Source: Escherichia coli 042 | Lineage (GTDB): Bacteria > Pseudomonadota > Gammaproteobacteria > Enterobacterales > Enterobacteriaceae | Reading direction: 5' to 3' (one strand) | DNA: 64,000 bases | NCBI RefSeq assembly: GCF_000027125.1 | Contig: NC_017626.1 | Made by a program: the position numbers and the translations under genes | Notes under the pieces: generated by a model | Database searches by the model: none | What the model was told of the DNA's origin: nothing | Seen by the model: the letters and a program-made list of their open reading frames with translations, nothing else | Shown: positions 8,331 to 34,770 of the stretch, in pieces | Position numbering within the stretch: the first letter of the stretch is position 1 | How the letters are laid out: the number at the start of each line of letters is the position of its first letter

Positions 8331-8450
8331 CACAAAACTATGCAAATTCAATATATTGCATGAGTCGAATAGGCCTGACAGGCGTAGCACGTCAGACGGT
8401 GTAACCTTTGTCATCAACCCGCCTCTTTTTTAATCGCTCCCCGCCTGTTA

Positions 8451-28738: not shown

Positions 28739-30682
28739 TTAAATCCTTAGCAGACGTTTGCAATTTGCAGCCGTTTGTTCTGCATCCTGGATATCCTGTT
28801 CCGACATTAAGCATCGCAACGCATCTTTTTCAATCCAGGGGTTGTTATTTCCGGCAATTGTTAGCCACATCCATGCTTGTTTATTATCAATTTTAGTGCC
28901 TGTCCCCTGAGCATACATTGCCGCAGTCTGGTGCTGCGCCTCGGTCGACCCTAAACGCGCCGCTTTTTCGTACCAGTGCAGCGCATGATTTTCATCTTTT
29001 ATGGTATCTTTTGTACCGTACAGATACATTTCGGCTAACAAAAATATCGCCTCTATTTGCCCACGCTGCGCTGCACCAGTAATCCATTGAATAGCCTCTG
29101 CGTTATTTTCAGGATCATCATTGTTGGTTAAATAATATTTCCCCAATTCATACATGGCCTCCCCTGCCCCATCTGTCCCATTTTTTGCTACTTTGGTAAA
29201 CCAGTACAGCGCTTTTTCCTGGTCCTGTAGAATACTCTCACTTTCGCTATACAACCTGGCAGTATGATATTGCGCATATAAATATCCCTGTTCTGCTGAT
29301 TGCAAAAGCCAACGATGGGCCTGTACCTTATCACGTGCCACACCAATCCCGTGTATATACATTTGTCCCAAATCATACTGGGCACGCTCATGTCCTTGTG
29401 TGGCGGCAGATAAATACCACCGTAATGCTTCTTCATAATTTCGTAATGGCTCAACAGCGAAGCGTGAGATACGGGCAATCTCATATTGCGCAGATGCGTT
29501 GCCATTTTTGGCAGCAAGTAAAAACCATTTTCGTGCCTCACTAATATTCTTATCCGTGCCCCTTCCATCGCGATACATGATGCCCAGCGCATACTGAGCA
29601 TCGATAACATTATGCTGCGCGGCGCGGGTAAACCAGTTAAAGGCTAATTTTAGATCCTGTGAAACCTCATCACCTTCATAATACATTTTGCCAAGAGAAT
29701 ACCAGGCAAGTGAATAGCCTTGCTCTGCAGCATGTAAGCAGGACTGGAATACAGAAGATGGATAATAAAAAAGACCTTTTAATTTTATGGCATTTAGCAA
29801 CTTTTTATATCCACTATGATGTTGCATTGCTAAATTATTGAAGCGTTCTGTTAATTTCCACTTGCGAATCATTTTTTCTTTTCGCCAGGAATATGATAAA
29901 CGCTCTATTAACAATGCCATATAGTTGTCTGATAGTTCAAATCCAGCGACTTTATTTAATACTGCGATATCAAACCATTTCAGGCTCTCTTCATTATCCT
30001 TTAATGATTGATAAATCGTAGCCATTTCCTTCCCGTTTTCCATTTCTTCCAGTGGAGACGAGTTACTGCCAAAGAAAGGGGTAATTTGTTTTTCGATTCG
30101 TGAATAAAGAAGACAACTTTCGTTAATTTCTGTCTGGATAGCTGGTTGACGGCTGCCTGCAACTAAATGCCATCTGAACGTTTGTGCAGCAGCGAGAGTT
30201 AATAATGGCCGGAATACCCGATGAAGATGCAGTAATAACGCTTCTTCAAAGCTCATTCGTGAGCTGAGATCTTTTTTCTCAAGGAAAGATAACGCCTTAG
30301 CAAGTTGCATGGGGGCGTGTTCGGGGGTTGCTTCATTCTCCTCACAGAGCATATCCAGCACGGCTTGCCAGGTGAATTCCTCCTCTGATTTAATAGTGAC
30401 ATCAGGAAGTGGATGACCAGAAAAGGTGTTGAGTGCGCGAAATGTCATCACAGGACGAGGATGAACAATACCCCTGGATATATTGATCGGTTGCTCTTCT
30501 TCCTCTTCTTGCCACTGATCTTCGTCGTCATAACGTAAAGCCTGTTCATAAGCATCGTGCAATTGTTGCCAGGCTTCGGGAGAATCTTCCGGGCGGCAAT
30601 TTTTTACCAGTTGCGCATAACGACGCTTAATATCTCGTTCTTCCGCGCCAGGTTGTAAACCTAATATTTCCCAGCAGTTCAT
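28739..30682 (-). CDS. J-like domain / Sel1-repeat protein, putative co-chaperone of the adjacent Hsp70
   Basis: ORF track 28739..30697 trimmed to ATG at 30682, which overlaps the upstream Hsp70 stop as ATGA. N-terminus CWEILGLQPGAEERDIKRRYAQLVKNCRPEDSPEAWQQLHDAYEQAL resembles a J domain but has RPE where HPD is expected; acidic linker; C-terminal half contains multiple Sel1-like repeats (AQYALGIMYRDGRGTDKNISEARKWFLLAAKNG, AQYDLGQMYIHGIGVARDKVQAHRWLLQSAEQG). Not a K-12 gene I recognise at this locus. Confidence 0.7.
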   Translation of the reverse strand: MNCWEILGLQPGAEERDIKRRYAQLVKNCRPEDSPEAWQQLHDAYEQALRYDDEDQWQEEEEEQPINISRGIVHPRPVMTFRALNTFSGHPLPDVTIKSEEEFTWQAVLDMLCEENEATPEHAPMQLAKALSFLEKKDLSSRMSFEEALLLHLHRVFRPLLTLAAAQTFRWHLVAGSRQPAIQTEINESCLLYSRIEKQITPFFGSNSSPLEEMENGKEMATIYQSLKDNEESLKWFDIAVLNKVAGFELSDNYMALLIERLSYSWRKEKMIRKWKLTERFNNLAMQHHSGYKKLLNAIKLKGLFYYPSSVFQSCLHAAEQGYSLAWYSLGKMYYEGDEVSQDLKLAFNWFTRAAQHNVIDAQYALGIMYRDGRGTDKNISEARKWFLLAAKNGNASAQYEIARISRFAVEPLRNYEEALRWYLSAATQGHERAQYDLGQMYIHGIGVARDKVQAHRWLLQSAEQGYLYAQYHTARLYSESESILQDQEKALYWFTKVAKNGTDGAGEAMYELGKYYLTNNDDPENNAEAIQWITGAAQRGQIEAIFLLAEMYLYGTKDTIKDENHALHWYEKAARLGSTEAQHQTAAMYAQGTGTKIDNKQAWMWLTIAGNNNPWIEKDALRCLMSEQDIQDAEQTAANCKRLLRI

Positions 30683-32379
30683 TGTAGACGCTCCCATTCC
30701 AGAGAGTCTAATGTCGGTTCAACTTTAGCCCGAAAATCAGCTAGTTGATCAGGATCCTGCTTCTCGAGTAGATAACTGAATTGACGAGAGCAATTGCTTA
30801 TCCAGTCTCGTGTTTCCGCCAGGGTGAGTTGATAGAGATTATCAAGACGGGCAATAAAGGCCTGGTTTATCTGTTCATCGCGTGGGTGAATTTTTAACAG
30901 GCTTAATTTGGACAACGACTGCTGTATTTGTTCTGCCGTTAATGCCCCTGGGTTCTGTTCAATAACCAGACTATTTTTAGCCCCTGTCAGTGGCACGCTG
31001 ATATCGACATCAAGAATACCGTTAATGTCGTACGTAAAACGAACATCAATACGCACATTACCGGCCGGTTTTGGCGGAACATTCACTGACAACTCCGCAA
31101 GGAAAATATTATCACCCACCATCCTGCTTTCACCCTGGTAGATTTTAAAATTAACCTCTGTTTGTTGATCATGTGCCGTATAAAAGGCACGAACGCGACT
31201 ACAAGGAATACTTCGGTTACGCTCAATAACGGGTGCAAAATAGCCTGATTCGCGGGTATGCCCCAGCGATTTAGAGGTATCAACGCCAAGTGTATAAGGG
31301 CAAACATCGGTCACTACTACATCTTGTAATTCGCTGTGCCGCGCTTTAAGTGCGGCCTGAATAGCCGCGCCCTGAGCAATGACTTCATCCGGGTTTAAAT
31401 GCATTGCCGGTATACGACCAAAAAGTTGTGTCACAAGTTTGCGAATCAGCGGCATACGTGTAGTGCCACCCACAAGAACAACCTGGTCTAATTGGCTAAT
31501 ATTAATTTTTGCATCGCGAATTGCCCGTTCCAGTGGCATACGGATTCGCTCGAAAAATGCCTGTAATAAAAATTCAAATTTTTCTGTGGTCAGATGCCAG
31601 TAATATCGCCTTCCTTCAATCTCCACACTGAAAGTTGCTTCGTCACGCATACTAAGCACGCGTTTGACACGCTCAGCCTCAATGCGTAAATGGCGTTGGA
31701 GTGTCGGTTCACGCCATTCAATATTTTCAGGAAGATCCATACGTGAGCAATATGCATCGATCAGGATATCGACAATATCTTCACCACCTAAAAAGTTATC
31801 CCCGGCACTGGCTCGTACTTCCATAATATTGTCAAACAACTCCAGTATGGAGATATCAAACGTACCACCACCTAAATCGAATACCAAAAATTGATGTTCA
31901 TCATCTTTATTATGCAAACCATACGCCAGTGCAGCGGCGGTTGGTTCGTTAATTAAACGTTCGACGTTTAAGCCTGCCATTGAAGCTGCCAATTTTGTTG
32001 CTTTGCGTTGCACATCACCAAAATAAGCAGGTACGCTAATTACTGCTTCTGTTATCTCTTCACCTAAATAGCTTTCAGCATCATCTTTTAGCTGACGCAG
32101 TATCAGCGATGAGAGTTCCTCTGCCCGAAATTCACGTCCGCCCAATTTAAACGTCTTTGATGTGCCCATCATGCGTTTAAAATTGGCTGCACAGTTTTGT
32201 GGTTTGATGAGTTGCAGGTCACGAGCTGCCTCCCCTGTCAAAACCATACCATCTTCGTCAACACAAACTACGCTGGGTGTTAAAAACTTGCCTAACGCAT
32301 TGGGGATCAGTTCACTTTGTCCATTTCGCCATACCGCTGCCAGACTGTTAGTCGTCCCGAGGTCAATACCGATAATCAT
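30679..32379 (-). CDS. Hsp70-family ATPase, HscC-like
   Basis: ORF track 30679..32394 (TTG) trimmed to ATG at 32379 with AAGAGGA Shine-Dalgarno. Hsp70 motifs present: IGIDLGTTNS (phosphate 1), FDLGGGTFD (phosphate 2), VLVGGTTRMP (adenosine), beta-sandwich substrate-binding region VTDVCPYTLGVDT; about 566 aa, shorter than DnaK. Confidence 0.75.
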   Translation of the reverse strand: MIIGIDLGTTNSLAAVWRNGQSELIPNALGKFLTPSVVCVDEDGMVLTGEAARDLQLIKPQNCAANFKRMMGTSKTFKLGGREFRAEELSSLILRQLKDDAESYLGEEITEAVISVPAYFGDVQRKATKLAASMAGLNVERLINEPTAAALAYGLHNKDDEHQFLVFDLGGGTFDISILELFDNIMEVRASAGDNFLGGEDIVDILIDAYCSRMDLPENIEWREPTLQRHLRIEAERVKRVLSMRDEATFSVEIEGRRYYWHLTTEKFEFLLQAFFERIRMPLERAIRDAKINISQLDQVVLVGGTTRMPLIRKLVTQLFGRIPAMHLNPDEVIAQGAAIQAALKARHSELQDVVVTDVCPYTLGVDTSKSLGHTRESGYFAPVIERNRSIPCSRVRAFYTAHDQQTEVNFKIYQGESRMVGDNIFLAELSVNVPPKPAGNVRIDVRFTYDINGILDVDISVPLTGAKNSLVIEQNPGALTAEQIQQSLSKLSLLKIHPRDEQINQAFIARLDNLYQLTLAETRDWISNCSRQFSYLLEKQDPDQLADFRAKVEPTLDSLEWERLQ

Positions 32380-32394
32380 AATTATCCTCTTCAA

Positions 32395-32560
32395 ATAAAT
32401 GAACTGATCATTTTATAGAGCAGTTATATATATTCATTTTGTGAATAATGTTCACAATCCCTGCGTTTAAAAATAATTTATAATGATGCAATCCATAACA
32501 TAACTTACGTGAATATAAAGATATTTCGTTTATAATTTTAGCTGTGGGTACTTATATCAT
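32395..32560 (-). promoter_or_regulatory. AT-rich upstream region, presumed promoter of the Hsp70 operon
   Basis: About 165 bp of very AT-rich sequence immediately upstream of the Hsp70 start; typical of promoters of horizontally acquired genes and of H-NS-bound DNA; no specific -35/-10 assigned. Confidence 0.3.
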
Positions 32561-32574
32561 ATACTCTAAATAAT

Positions 32575-32770
32575 TCGATTTGTAGGAAGGCAGCAAGTAA
32601 GTGAATCCCGAGGAGCTTACATAAGTAAGTGACTGGGCTGAACGACAAATCCGCATGGAGCGGATTTGAACGCTGCTTTCAGCGGCCCCGTAAGGGGTGA
32701 GGCCCATGGATGGGCCGAATAACCCGCAGACGCAGCACATGCAACTTGAAGCATGACGAGTATAACCAAT
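32575..32770. other. GC-rich structured non-coding segment (candidate small RNA or gene remnant)
   Basis: No convincing ORF; direct repeat AAGTAAGTGA twice 30 bp apart (32596-32605, 32623-32632); hairpins AATCCGC-ATGGAG-CGGATTT, CCCC-GTAA-GGGG (GNRA-type loop) and GGCCC-ATGGAT-GGGCC; followed by the 32771-32808 terminator hairpin. Confidence 0.25.
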
Positions 32771-32808
32771 AAAGCCAATGGCGGAATATCTACCATTGGC
32801 TTTGTTTT
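32771..32808. terminator. Hairpin terminator between topB and the structured segment
   Basis: AAAGCCAATGG-loop-CCATTGGCTTT followed by GTTTT on the plus strand and preceded by an A-rich run, so it could terminate plus-strand transcripts and, less efficiently, topB. Confidence 0.5.
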
Positions 32809-32823
32809 AGAGTGGAAAACGAA

Positions 32824-34770
32824 TTAATTAGCAGAATCCGTATTATCTTTTTTGGGCTTTGCCGCTTTTTTCACACGATTATTGGGTGCTTTTTTAACAG
32901 CCCCCCCACCTGGTGCCACAATTCCTCTAAACCGTCTGACCGGAGTGCTACGAGCCTGATCAATCAGTTGGTAAAGCGTCCCCACCAACGGCTGCATAAA
33001 GTCCTGATAGCGACACTGCTTTTCGCTGATTTGCGTCAGCACCGATTCCCAGTGCGCGGTCATGTCCGGTCTCGTTGCCATCTCCGGCAGCGAATGGAAT
33101 AACGCTTTTCCAGCGTCGGTGGAGTGGATATAGCGCCCTTTTTTGGTCAGGAAACCACGCTTGAACAACAGTTCAATAATCCCGGCACGTGTTGCTTCTG
33201 TCCCCAGACCATCGGTAGCACGGAGGATCTTTTTCAGATCTTTGTCCTGCACAAAGCGCGCGATCCCGGTCATCGCCGAAAGCAGTGTTGCATCGGTAAA
33301 ATGGCGCGGCGGCTGCGTTTGCCGCTCTACCACTTCACCTTTTTCACACAGCAACTCATCGCCTTTCGCCACCACAGGCAGCGGCGTGCCATCGTTTTCT
33401 TCATCGCGCTCTTTGCTGCCTAACAGCGTGCGCCAGCCTGCTTCGGCAAGAAAACGGGCTTTAGCGACAAATTTACCTTTGGCTATTTCCAGTTCGATAA
33501 CACACTTGCGGAACACCGCATCCGGGCAGAACTGCATCAGGTATTGACGAGCAATCAGGTTATAGACCTTCGATTCGTTCTCCGTCAGGTTGATCGCAGA
33601 ACTCCGTGCGGTCGGGATGATGGCGTGGTGCGCATCGACCTTTTTGTCATCCCAGCAGCGGTTGCGTATATCTGGATCGACCACTGGCTGCGGTAACAAC
33701 CCCGGTGCATGAACGCTGATGGCATTCATCACTGCGTGGCGTCCGGCAAAATGCTCTTCCGGCAGATAGCGACAATCGGAACGCGGATAAGTGATTAGCT
33801 TGTGCGTTTCGTACAACTTCTGGCAGATATCAAGCACGTTCTGCGCACTCAGACCAAAGCGTTTTGCCGCTTCAATCTGCAACGCCGAAAGCGAAAACGG
33901 CAGCGGTGCGGATTCTGATTCCCGTTTATCGTTATAGCTGGTGACTATAGCCGGTTGACCACTAATGCGGTTAACCACATGCTCCGCCAGTGGACGATGT
34001 AACAAGCGCCCTTCTTCATCCTGGTACGGTTCACACGCTTCGCTCGGTTGCCAGATAGCGGTAAACCGCTCATCGGCAGGTGTCACGATATGTGCTTTGA
34101 CTTCAAAGAAGTCTTTCGCCACGAAGTTTTCAATCTCTTCGTCGCGGCGCACTACCAGCCCGAGCACGGGCGTCTGCACGCGTCCCACGGAAAGCACGCC
34201 CTGATAACCCGCATTGCGACCGAGAATGGTGTAAGCGCGGGTCATATTGATTCCGTACAGCCAGTCGGCTCGGGCTCGCGCCAGTGCAGAAACGCACAAC
34301 GGCACAAACTCACTGTTGGAACGAAGACGATCGATCGCCCGCTCAACCGCCTGCGGGTTCAGGTCGTTTATCAAGCAACGCTGCACCTGCTGGCGCTTTT
34401 CCGGTGCCAGTTGCAGATAGTCCAGCACTTCATCCACCAGTAATTGCCCTTCGCGATCCGGGTCACCGGCGTGAACGATTTCGCTGGCTTCATGCAGGAA
34501 GCGTTTGATGACATTAAGTTGTTTAGTCACGGAGGGTCGGGGCTGTAATTGCCACTTTTCCGGGACAATCGGCAAATCCGCAAGATTCCAGCGCGCATAG
34601 CGGCTGTCGTAGGCGTCTGGCTGCGCCTGCTCAAGCAGGTGACCGATACACCAGGTCACTACCTGACCATTACCGCACTCGATAAAGCCATCGCCTTTCC
34701 GGTGCGGTTTGGGCAGGACATCAGCAATGGCGCGCGCCAGACTCGGTTTTTCGGCAATAAACAACCGCAT
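32824..34770 (-). CDS. topB: DNA topoisomerase III
   Basis: ORF track 32824..34827 trimmed to ATG at 34770 ([19 protein letters not shown], Toprim N-terminus), 4 bp after the selD stop; gives 648 aa. Confidence 0.9.

Follow-up and report, generated by a model that had tools for sequence, protein, structure and literature searches.

A window of 64,000 nucleotides from the chromosome of Escherichia coli 042 (contig NC_017626.1), the whole stretch to which positions given without a locus or record name refer, contains two genes on the minus strand that are flanked by gdhA and topB. The upstream gene codes for an Hsp70 chaperone and the downstream gene for a protein of 647 amino acids (aa), here called J-Sel1, which starts with a J domain and carries Sel1-like repeats further on. 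J domains are usually recognized by the tripeptide HPD, which is treated as their single indispensable element; J-Sel1 has RPE at its position. The features of this gene pair are as follows.

28739..30682, minus strand: J-Sel1 gene, 647 aa, WP_000995915.1 (named 'J domain-containing protein' by PGAP), start MNCWEIL
30679..32379, minus strand: gene of an HscC-type Hsp70, 566 aa, WP_000583403.1, presumed partner of the J domain (sequence features)
30679-30682, minus strand: ATGA overlap of Hsp70 stop and J-Sel1 start (4 bp; translational coupling), read from the sequence
30691-30695, minus strand: GGGAG, Shine-Dalgarno-like sequence 8 nt upstream of the J-Sel1 ATG, read from the sequence
30530..30682, minus strand: N-terminal J domain, residues 1-51 (MNCWEILGLQPGAEERDIKRRYAQLVKNCRPEDSPEAWQQLHDAYEQALRY); Pfam, profile, AlphaFold2 (AF2) model
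30587..30595, minus strand: RPE, residues R30-P31-E32, codons CGC CCG GAA, at the HPD position; sequence and alignment
30380..30532, minus strand: acidic, poorly conserved linker, predicted to be disordered, residues ~51-101; predicted local distance difference test (pLDDT) score <50 for 53-101
29783..30370, minus strand: all-alpha middle domain, residues ~105-300; confident AF2 model
28844..29701, minus strand: eight Sel1-like repeats (PF08238), residues ~328-613; five repeats at E<=3e-4

Architecture of J-Sel1 and of the adjacent Hsp70

A previous, sequence-only reading had taken the N-terminus of J-Sel1 for a J domain with RPE in place of HPD and the adjacent Hsp70 for its partner. The first part is confirmed by Pfam family DnaJ (PF00226), which matches the full protein weakly (E=2.1e-4), the isolated domain at E=1.6e-6 and 13 of 14 family members at <=1e-3, and by a profile of the family, which finds the solved J domains of DNAJA3 (6iws, 2.8e-7) and of E. 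coli DnaJ (5nro/1xbl, 3.4e-5). HMMER alignments to human DNAJA3, DNAJA1 and the J-domain subunit of Euglena complex I put 'rPE' on 'HPD', and neither an HPD nor an HPE tripeptide is present in the rest of the 647-aa protein. The AF2 model, calculated for residues 1-335 from an alignment of 14 sequences (mean pLDDT 81.9), contains the helix II-loop-helix III hairpin typical of the J domain fold: helix I is short (residues 3-7), helices II and III span residues 15-28 and 35-49, and RPE lies in the loop between them (pLDDT 86-90). The sequence-only reading has to be corrected in two points: helix IV is absent, and the loop from the motif to helix III lacks about 6 residues in comparison with DnaJ.

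In Escherichia and Klebsiella, conservation of J-Sel1 is highest in residues 1-50, where the mean frequency of the commonest residue is 0.82-0.85, compared with 0.5-0.6 elsewhere in the protein. RPE is present in all Escherichia and Klebsiella homologues seen, with the exception of E. whittamii (HPE). Because it is kept across these homologues, RPE is neither a chance feature nor a one-off mutation.

Pfam gave no match in residues 60-325, and the middle domain is specific to the Escherichia/Klebsiella family, its structural neighbours being generic helical repeats only. The Sel1 region is about 35% identical over 268 aa to YbeQ, one of two Sel1 proteins of the hscC locus of E. coli K-12. A scan of both proteins against NCBIfam revealed no specific family, only generic similarity to Sel1 and to DnaK/HscA below the cut-offs. 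A C-terminal tail-anchor helix, looked for in J-Sel1, was not found (the maximal 19-residue Kyte-Doolittle value is 1.22, against 2.39 in DjlB and 1.99 in DjlC), and the protein is therefore predicted to be soluble and not membrane-bound.

With E. coli HscC the adjacent Hsp70 shares 43.8% identity, with DnaK 37.6%, and it reaches no NCBIfam equivalog cut-off for DnaK or HscA. According to the review by Mayer, the HscC subfamily is characterized by deletion of the region corresponding to DnaK 76-101, deletion of the D211 loop, an insertion of 4-8 residues in loop L1,2 of the beta part of the substrate-binding domain (SBDbeta), and a shortened lid and C-terminus (PMC8215388). Every one of these hallmarks is present in the alignment of the Hsp70 from the window, which shows the same gaps as HscC, an L1,2 insertion of 8 residues and a total length of 566 aa. 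Its gene overlaps that of J-Sel1 by 4 bp, and, as in the earlier reading, this Hsp70 is the obvious presumed partner of the J domain. Equivalents of the catalytic residues K70, E171, D194, T199 and D201 of DnaK are intact, and so are the J-contacting residues R167 (R141 in the window Hsp70), N170, Q378 and P419. D477 and D481 are replaced by T and N, respectively, as in HscC.

Motif states and Hsp70 partners across the J-domain lineage

A search of 1.84 billion proteins with a profile of the J domain (E<=1e-10, matches clustered at 50% identity) yielded 3575 cluster representatives. Among the best 150 of them, the tripeptide is RPD in 63, HPE in 54, RPE in 25, NPE in 6, and SPE and HPD in one each; the sole HPD belongs to an unrelated multi-J protein. 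Because the J-domain profile could favour its own motif, a second census was made on metagenome contigs with a DNA pattern coding for P-[D/E]-[D/E]-D-P-x-x-[F/Y]-Q-x-L-R-x-A-Y-E, in which position 1 of the tripeptide was left free and position 3 could be either acid; the helix III signature was fixed, so that only this lineage was sampled. The 110 unique J domains obtained comprise 61 RPD, 21 HPE, 13 NPE, 13 RPE and 2 QPE, with no HPD. RPD and RPE together make up 74 of the 110, that is, arginine in place of histidine is the commonest state in the lineage. Aspartate at position 3 occurs only together with arginine at position 1 (Fisher p = 2e-18 for raw counts, 1.6e-4 after clustering at 60%).

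The glutamate half of the motif has precedents. HPE is documented in DjlB and DjlC, where it is accepted as functional (PMC10410713, PMC13254874), and it was the sole variant reported in a survey from 2023. Because the D-to-E exchange is a known hallmark of the DjlB/DjlC lineage, only the H-to-R half of RPE is new. J domains with RPD, RPE or NPE were not mentioned in the literature searched, although R-type motifs may have been noticed earlier, and searches for HscC combined with phage, DUF1266 or the protein accessions returned nothing on a J-Sel1/Hsp70 system.

These distributions bear on another explanation of RPE, namely that a recent mutation inactivated a HPE co-chaperone and the locus is being lost. 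The exchange of His (CAC) for Arg (CGC) is a single transition, E. whittamii has HPE, and the genes are missing from most E. coli. However, both open reading frames (ORFs) are intact and of full length (the Hsp70 has 566 aa, as in Klebsiella), RPE is common to homologues that are only 35-45% identical, no other region of the protein is as conserved as the J domain, and R-type motifs are dominant in the whole lineage. Decay is effectively refuted by the conservation data, and we regard it as extremely improbable.

The association with HscC-type Hsp70s extends over the lineage. In the Klebsiella and E. fergusonii loci, the gene of an HscC-type Hsp70 (564-567 aa) lies immediately upstream of the J gene, and the same Hsp70-then-J order was seen in individual RPD, HPE and NPE examples. 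In metagenomic contigs with enough upstream sequence, HscC-type Hsp70 is directly upstream of 56 of 86 J genes, across all motif classes (RPD, RPE, HPE, NPE and QPE). In genomes representing individual species, scanned with a narrower J alignment that sampled mostly Pseudomonas, it directly precedes 41 of 84 RPD genes. Roughly every second RPD J gene of Pseudomonas is an 'orphan', an Hsp70 gene being absent from the surrounding 8 kb. In Pseudomonas loci (L014-L023 and others, for example L017 9497-10531), the gene after the J gene often codes for a protein that has a signal-peptide-like N-terminus and is at most ~350 aa long; this arrangement was found in 28 loci, of which 5 alone have Hsp70 upstream. 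In another locus (L009 8685-9686), the gene that follows the J gene is annotated as DUF3829.

Relatives are also found on megaplasmids of Rahnella, Pantoea and Duffyella, beside genes annotated as hscC; among plasmids, only megaplasmids carry them. In phage records they are practically absent, with one match (MT835719.1 8689-8829). That record is an unannotated 27-kb contig from human faeces labelled 'Bacteriophage sp.', and its J domain, which belongs to this lineage, is 44.7% identical over residues 2-48.

In a neighbour-joining tree of partner Hsp70s, rooted with DnaK, partners of HPE and NPE J domains are basal, and the window Hsp70 groups with those of Klebsiella beside a large RPD clade. 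At least 11 motif switches at position 1 and at least 5 at position 3 are needed on this tree, and the RPE clades adjoin the large RPD clade. Such topology fits a path from HPE through RPE to RPD that would never have passed via HPD. R167 of DnaK is the one Hsp70 position known to touch the acidic residue of the motif. Its column contains arginine in all 29 partners of xPE J domains and lysine in 24 of 36 partners of RPD J domains; lysine was seen only in Hsp70s with an RPD neighbour. This split is suggestive and could be compensatory, but it is confounded by clade and may be a mere clade effect. A scan of mutual information between Hsp70 columns and motif state was also tried and set aside, as its top columns are scattered and mirror the clade structure, not the interface.

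On balance we lean towards the view that HscC-partner J domains constitute one large lineage, comprising thousands of clusters at 50% identity, which lacks HPD and has a co-varying motif (R, H, N or Q combined with Glu; Asp with Arg only), with RPE as the bridge between HPE and RPD.

The gdhA-topB slot and divergence of the adaptors

The gene pair fills the space between two chromosomal genes.

27340-28683, plus strand: gdhA, left flank
32824-34770, minus strand: topB, right flank
28684..32823, no strand assigned: GC-poor accessory island filling the gdhA-topB slot (GC content and genome comparison)

GC content of the island is 0.39-0.48, compared with 0.54-0.57 in the flanks. Among 5426 complete E. 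coli genomes, the island is present in about 354-363 (~6.5%), carriers including strain Ecol_316 and a relative of UPEC 536; in most other E. coli the slot is occupied by ynjI, coding for a DUF1266 protein, and in some it is empty. Since Klebsiella and E. fergusonii have the same module in the same slot, the island does not look recently inserted but like an accessory locus that is old and often lost. In the K-12 hscC locus, djlB and djlC are likewise coupled to DUF1266 genes, and in locus L011 a DUF1266 gene follows a HPE J gene. Because of this company, ynjI may be a relic of a module of this kind or another form of it, and its presence as an allele of the same slot hints at such a common module.

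The ORF of J-Sel1 remains open for 5 codons upstream of the annotated start (MGAST-MNCW..., 30683-30697), where it runs within the 3' end of the Hsp70 gene; as every homologue begins at M-x-C-W, we keep to the annotated start. A scan of the island for promoters and terminators gave fewer promoter-like sites than shuffled sequences did, and none that could be used. Between topB and the Hsp70 gene, E. fergusonii has an additional gene (L008 5434-6234) for a 266-aa protein with a signal-peptide-like N-terminus, which belongs to no Pfam or NCBIfam family. The sole Rfam match at the gathering threshold in the whole window is the small RNA ES036 (CssrF) at 8334-8376 on the plus strand (38.9 bits).

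The proteins of the slot and its flanks differ greatly in their identity to the window:

gdhA: 90-94%
topB: 90-97%
Hsp70: 75-87%
J-Sel1 adaptors: 40-44%

The low identity of the adaptors holds even in E. fergusonii. In Klebsiella (L004 3748-10472; L013 5964-10469), two to three tandem J-Sel1 paralogues of 669-823 aa stand behind a single Hsp70; they are about 44% identical to each other and all have RPE, including the three J paralogues of L004, recorded as K. oxytoca. Tandem J paralogues likewise occur in Pseudomonas.

Fast divergence of this kind raises the question of a diversifying conflict system, in which Sel1 adaptors would pass foreign proteins to a dedicated Hsp70 as a form of anti-phage or anti-effector surveillance; a functional J domain would be compatible with it. 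Such a role agrees with the presence/absence polymorphism of the island (~6.5% of E. coli, a slot with three alternative contents), with its GC-poor composition, with the tandem divergent paralogues in Klebsiella (2-3 per Hsp70) and Pseudomonas, and with adaptors far more divergent than their Hsp70. However, the PADLOC scan of both proteins gave no significant defence match, the only hits being marginal and partial (PtuA at 3.2e-5, to a 45-aa stretch in a Sel1 repeat; PDC-M61B at 2.3e-4), and the island genes include none for a nuclease, a toxin or any other effector. The module is moreover essentially absent from phages and restricted to megaplasmids among plasmids, and, in contrast to typical defence islands, which are mobile, the locus keeps its synteny between Escherichia and Klebsiella. 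We therefore consider a conflict system unlikely, even if the fast-diversifying J-Sel1 adaptors might be specificity modules of this sort.

Interpretation of the pair and comparison with known systems

From the loss of HPD the sequence-only reading had deduced either a different mode of coupling to Hsp70 or a regulatory or inhibitory partner. The latter deduction does not agree with the data. The D-to-E exchange is typical of DjlB and DjlC, and DjlC activates HscC; the H-to-R exchange is the commonest state of the lineage (74 of 110). The J domain is the most constrained segment of J-Sel1 and the only one in the operon, the Klebsiella J paralogues of L004 all have RPE, and the Hsp70 keeps its catalytic residues together with R167, Q378 and P419. 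A different mode of coupling may apply in a narrower sense, as a re-tuned interface specific to HscC-type Hsp70s.

A related possibility is a pseudo-J domain of 'type IV', similar to Pam16, that would bind Hsp70 or another J domain without triggering hydrolysis and serve as a recruiter, tether or inhibitor. Neither the window operon nor the rest of the island contains a second J domain, conservation and covariation of the motif are not those of a degenerate one, and R-type motifs dominate the lineage; we judge such a role of J-Sel1 to be improbable.

The RPE J domain most likely belongs to a co-chaperone that works in a rewired form, not to a dead or inhibitory protein. What favours this is that RPE is one of several regular variants (RPD, HPE, RPE and NPE) occurring beside HscC-type Hsp70s. 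We consider it probable that the two genes encode chaperone partners dedicated to each other, similar in kind to HscC with DjlB and DjlC, in which J-Sel1 would be a soluble client adaptor whose J domain triggers hydrolysis.

In the mechanism we propose, the Sel1 solenoid, together with the helical middle domain, would bind one or more client proteins. The J domain would dock on the ATP-bound form of its own HscC-type Hsp70 and, judging from family membership, trigger ATP hydrolysis, whereupon Hsp70 would clamp and remodel the client. RPE would be an allowed state of the lineage motif [R/H/N/Q]-P-[D/E], which makes no use of canonical HPD. Arg30 could stand in for histidine as the donor to the backbone of the interdomain linker (V354-T357), Glu32 could take the place of aspartate, pairing with the conserved arginine equivalent to DnaK R167, and Pro31 could pack against the conserved proline equivalent to P419.

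Several observations speak against a working co-chaperone. Replacement of histidine by glutamine at position 1 of the motif abolishes stimulation in DnaJ and in other systems. Helix IV is missing from the J domain of J-Sel1, and K26 and R27, two of the basic residues of DnaJ helix II that contact DnaK, have no counterpart in its sequence. The motif statistics allow for kinship by identity clustering alone. Finally, a review from 2026 recognizes HPE as the only replacement known to be tolerated, calls other deviations from HPD 'presumably nonfunctional' and finds it 'enigmatic' whether they arose by accident or selection (PMC13254874).

The E. coli operon described here is a natural case of an RPE J domain paired with its own Hsp70, in a lineage where R-P-D/E, H-P-E and N-P-E are the rule. 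If these domains are competent, the statement that only HPD (or HPE) activates Hsp70 would be wrong for a whole branch of bacterial Hsp70s. The activation contact would then have been re-engineered by nature, and its study could show how the signal from J domain to Hsp70 is rewired.

Canonical J domains (DnaJ, CbpA, DjlA and HscB; PF00226) share with J-Sel1 the helix II-loop-helix III hairpin, the central proline and the acidic third position of the motif, basic residues of helix II (K19, R20, R21) and the AYE signature of helix III. J-Sel1 differs from them by arginine in place of histidine, by the loop after the motif, shorter by ~6 residues, and by having no helix IV; it also lacks equivalents of K26/R27, and correspondingly the Hsp70 lacks D211 and D477. 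In the pseudo-J domain of Pam16/Tim16 ('type IV'), the tripeptide is DKE or DKS, so that the proline and the acidic geometry are lost, and the protein is complexed with a true J domain, Pam18. J-Sel1, on the other hand, keeps P-[D/E] in a conserved and co-varying motif, and its island encodes no partner J domain.

Closer relatives are the RPD J proteins of Pseudomonas and other proteobacteria, whose J domains are 55-69% identical to that of J-Sel1 and likewise have arginine at position 1. The Hsp70-then-J order, tandem J paralogues and a neighbouring Hsp70 clade are further common traits. The two groups differ at position 3 (Asp in the RPD proteins, Glu in J-Sel1), and C-terminal regions of the RPD proteins are unrelated to Sel1.

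The closest known counterpart is the HscC system of E. coli K-12, in which DjlC stimulates the ATPase of HscC according to Kluck 2002, a work cited by the later reviews PMC8215388 and PMC13254874. BLASTP of J-Sel1 against DjlB and DjlC gives 7e-10 and 3e-7, with similarity confined to the J domain. The motif lies in the context ...CHPETDP... in DjlB and ...FHPETDP... in DjlC, and the extreme N-terminus of J-Sel1 resembles them in the CWxIL start, short loop and xPExDP followed by ..LR.AYE.AL (..LRQAYEEAL at the end of the domain), with Glu at the acidic position of the motif. Comparison by hhalign with the DjlB/DjlC type reaches a probability of 99.7% with the J domain included; with the J domain removed, the middle region has no significant similarity to their central (DjlB_C) region (probability 3.7%, E=0.011). 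In both systems the J protein genes adjoin an HscC-type Hsp70 gene, Sel1 repeats are present, and several J proteins can serve one Hsp70 (DjlB and DjlC in K-12, 2-3 J-Sel1 paralogues in Klebsiella).

The K-12 locus has the order ybeQ(Sel1)-ybeR(DUF1266)-djlB-ybeT(Sel1)-ybeU(DUF1266)-djlC-hscC and lies at another chromosomal site. The djlC-hscC region is itself accessory: of 5426 complete E. coli genomes, 4409 have it, and several copies are broken by IS1 or IS5. Sensitivity to Cd2+ and to UV are known phenotypes of HscC. Sel1 repeats are encoded by separate genes in the K-12 locus, whereas in J-Sel1 they are fused to the J protein, whose gene overlaps the end of the Hsp70 gene immediately upstream. 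The island contains no DUF1266 gene, the DUF1266 gene ynjI being instead an alternative occupant of its slot, and J-Sel1 has RPE instead of HPE and no C-terminal tail-anchor transmembrane helix. What is new with respect to the HscC/DjlB-DjlC kind is thus the fusion of J domain and Sel1 repeats, the predicted solubility of the protein and the RPE motif. The pair enlarges the little-understood HscC system, and its fusion protein makes a functional connection between the chaperone and the Sel1 proteins encoded in the K-12 hscC locus.

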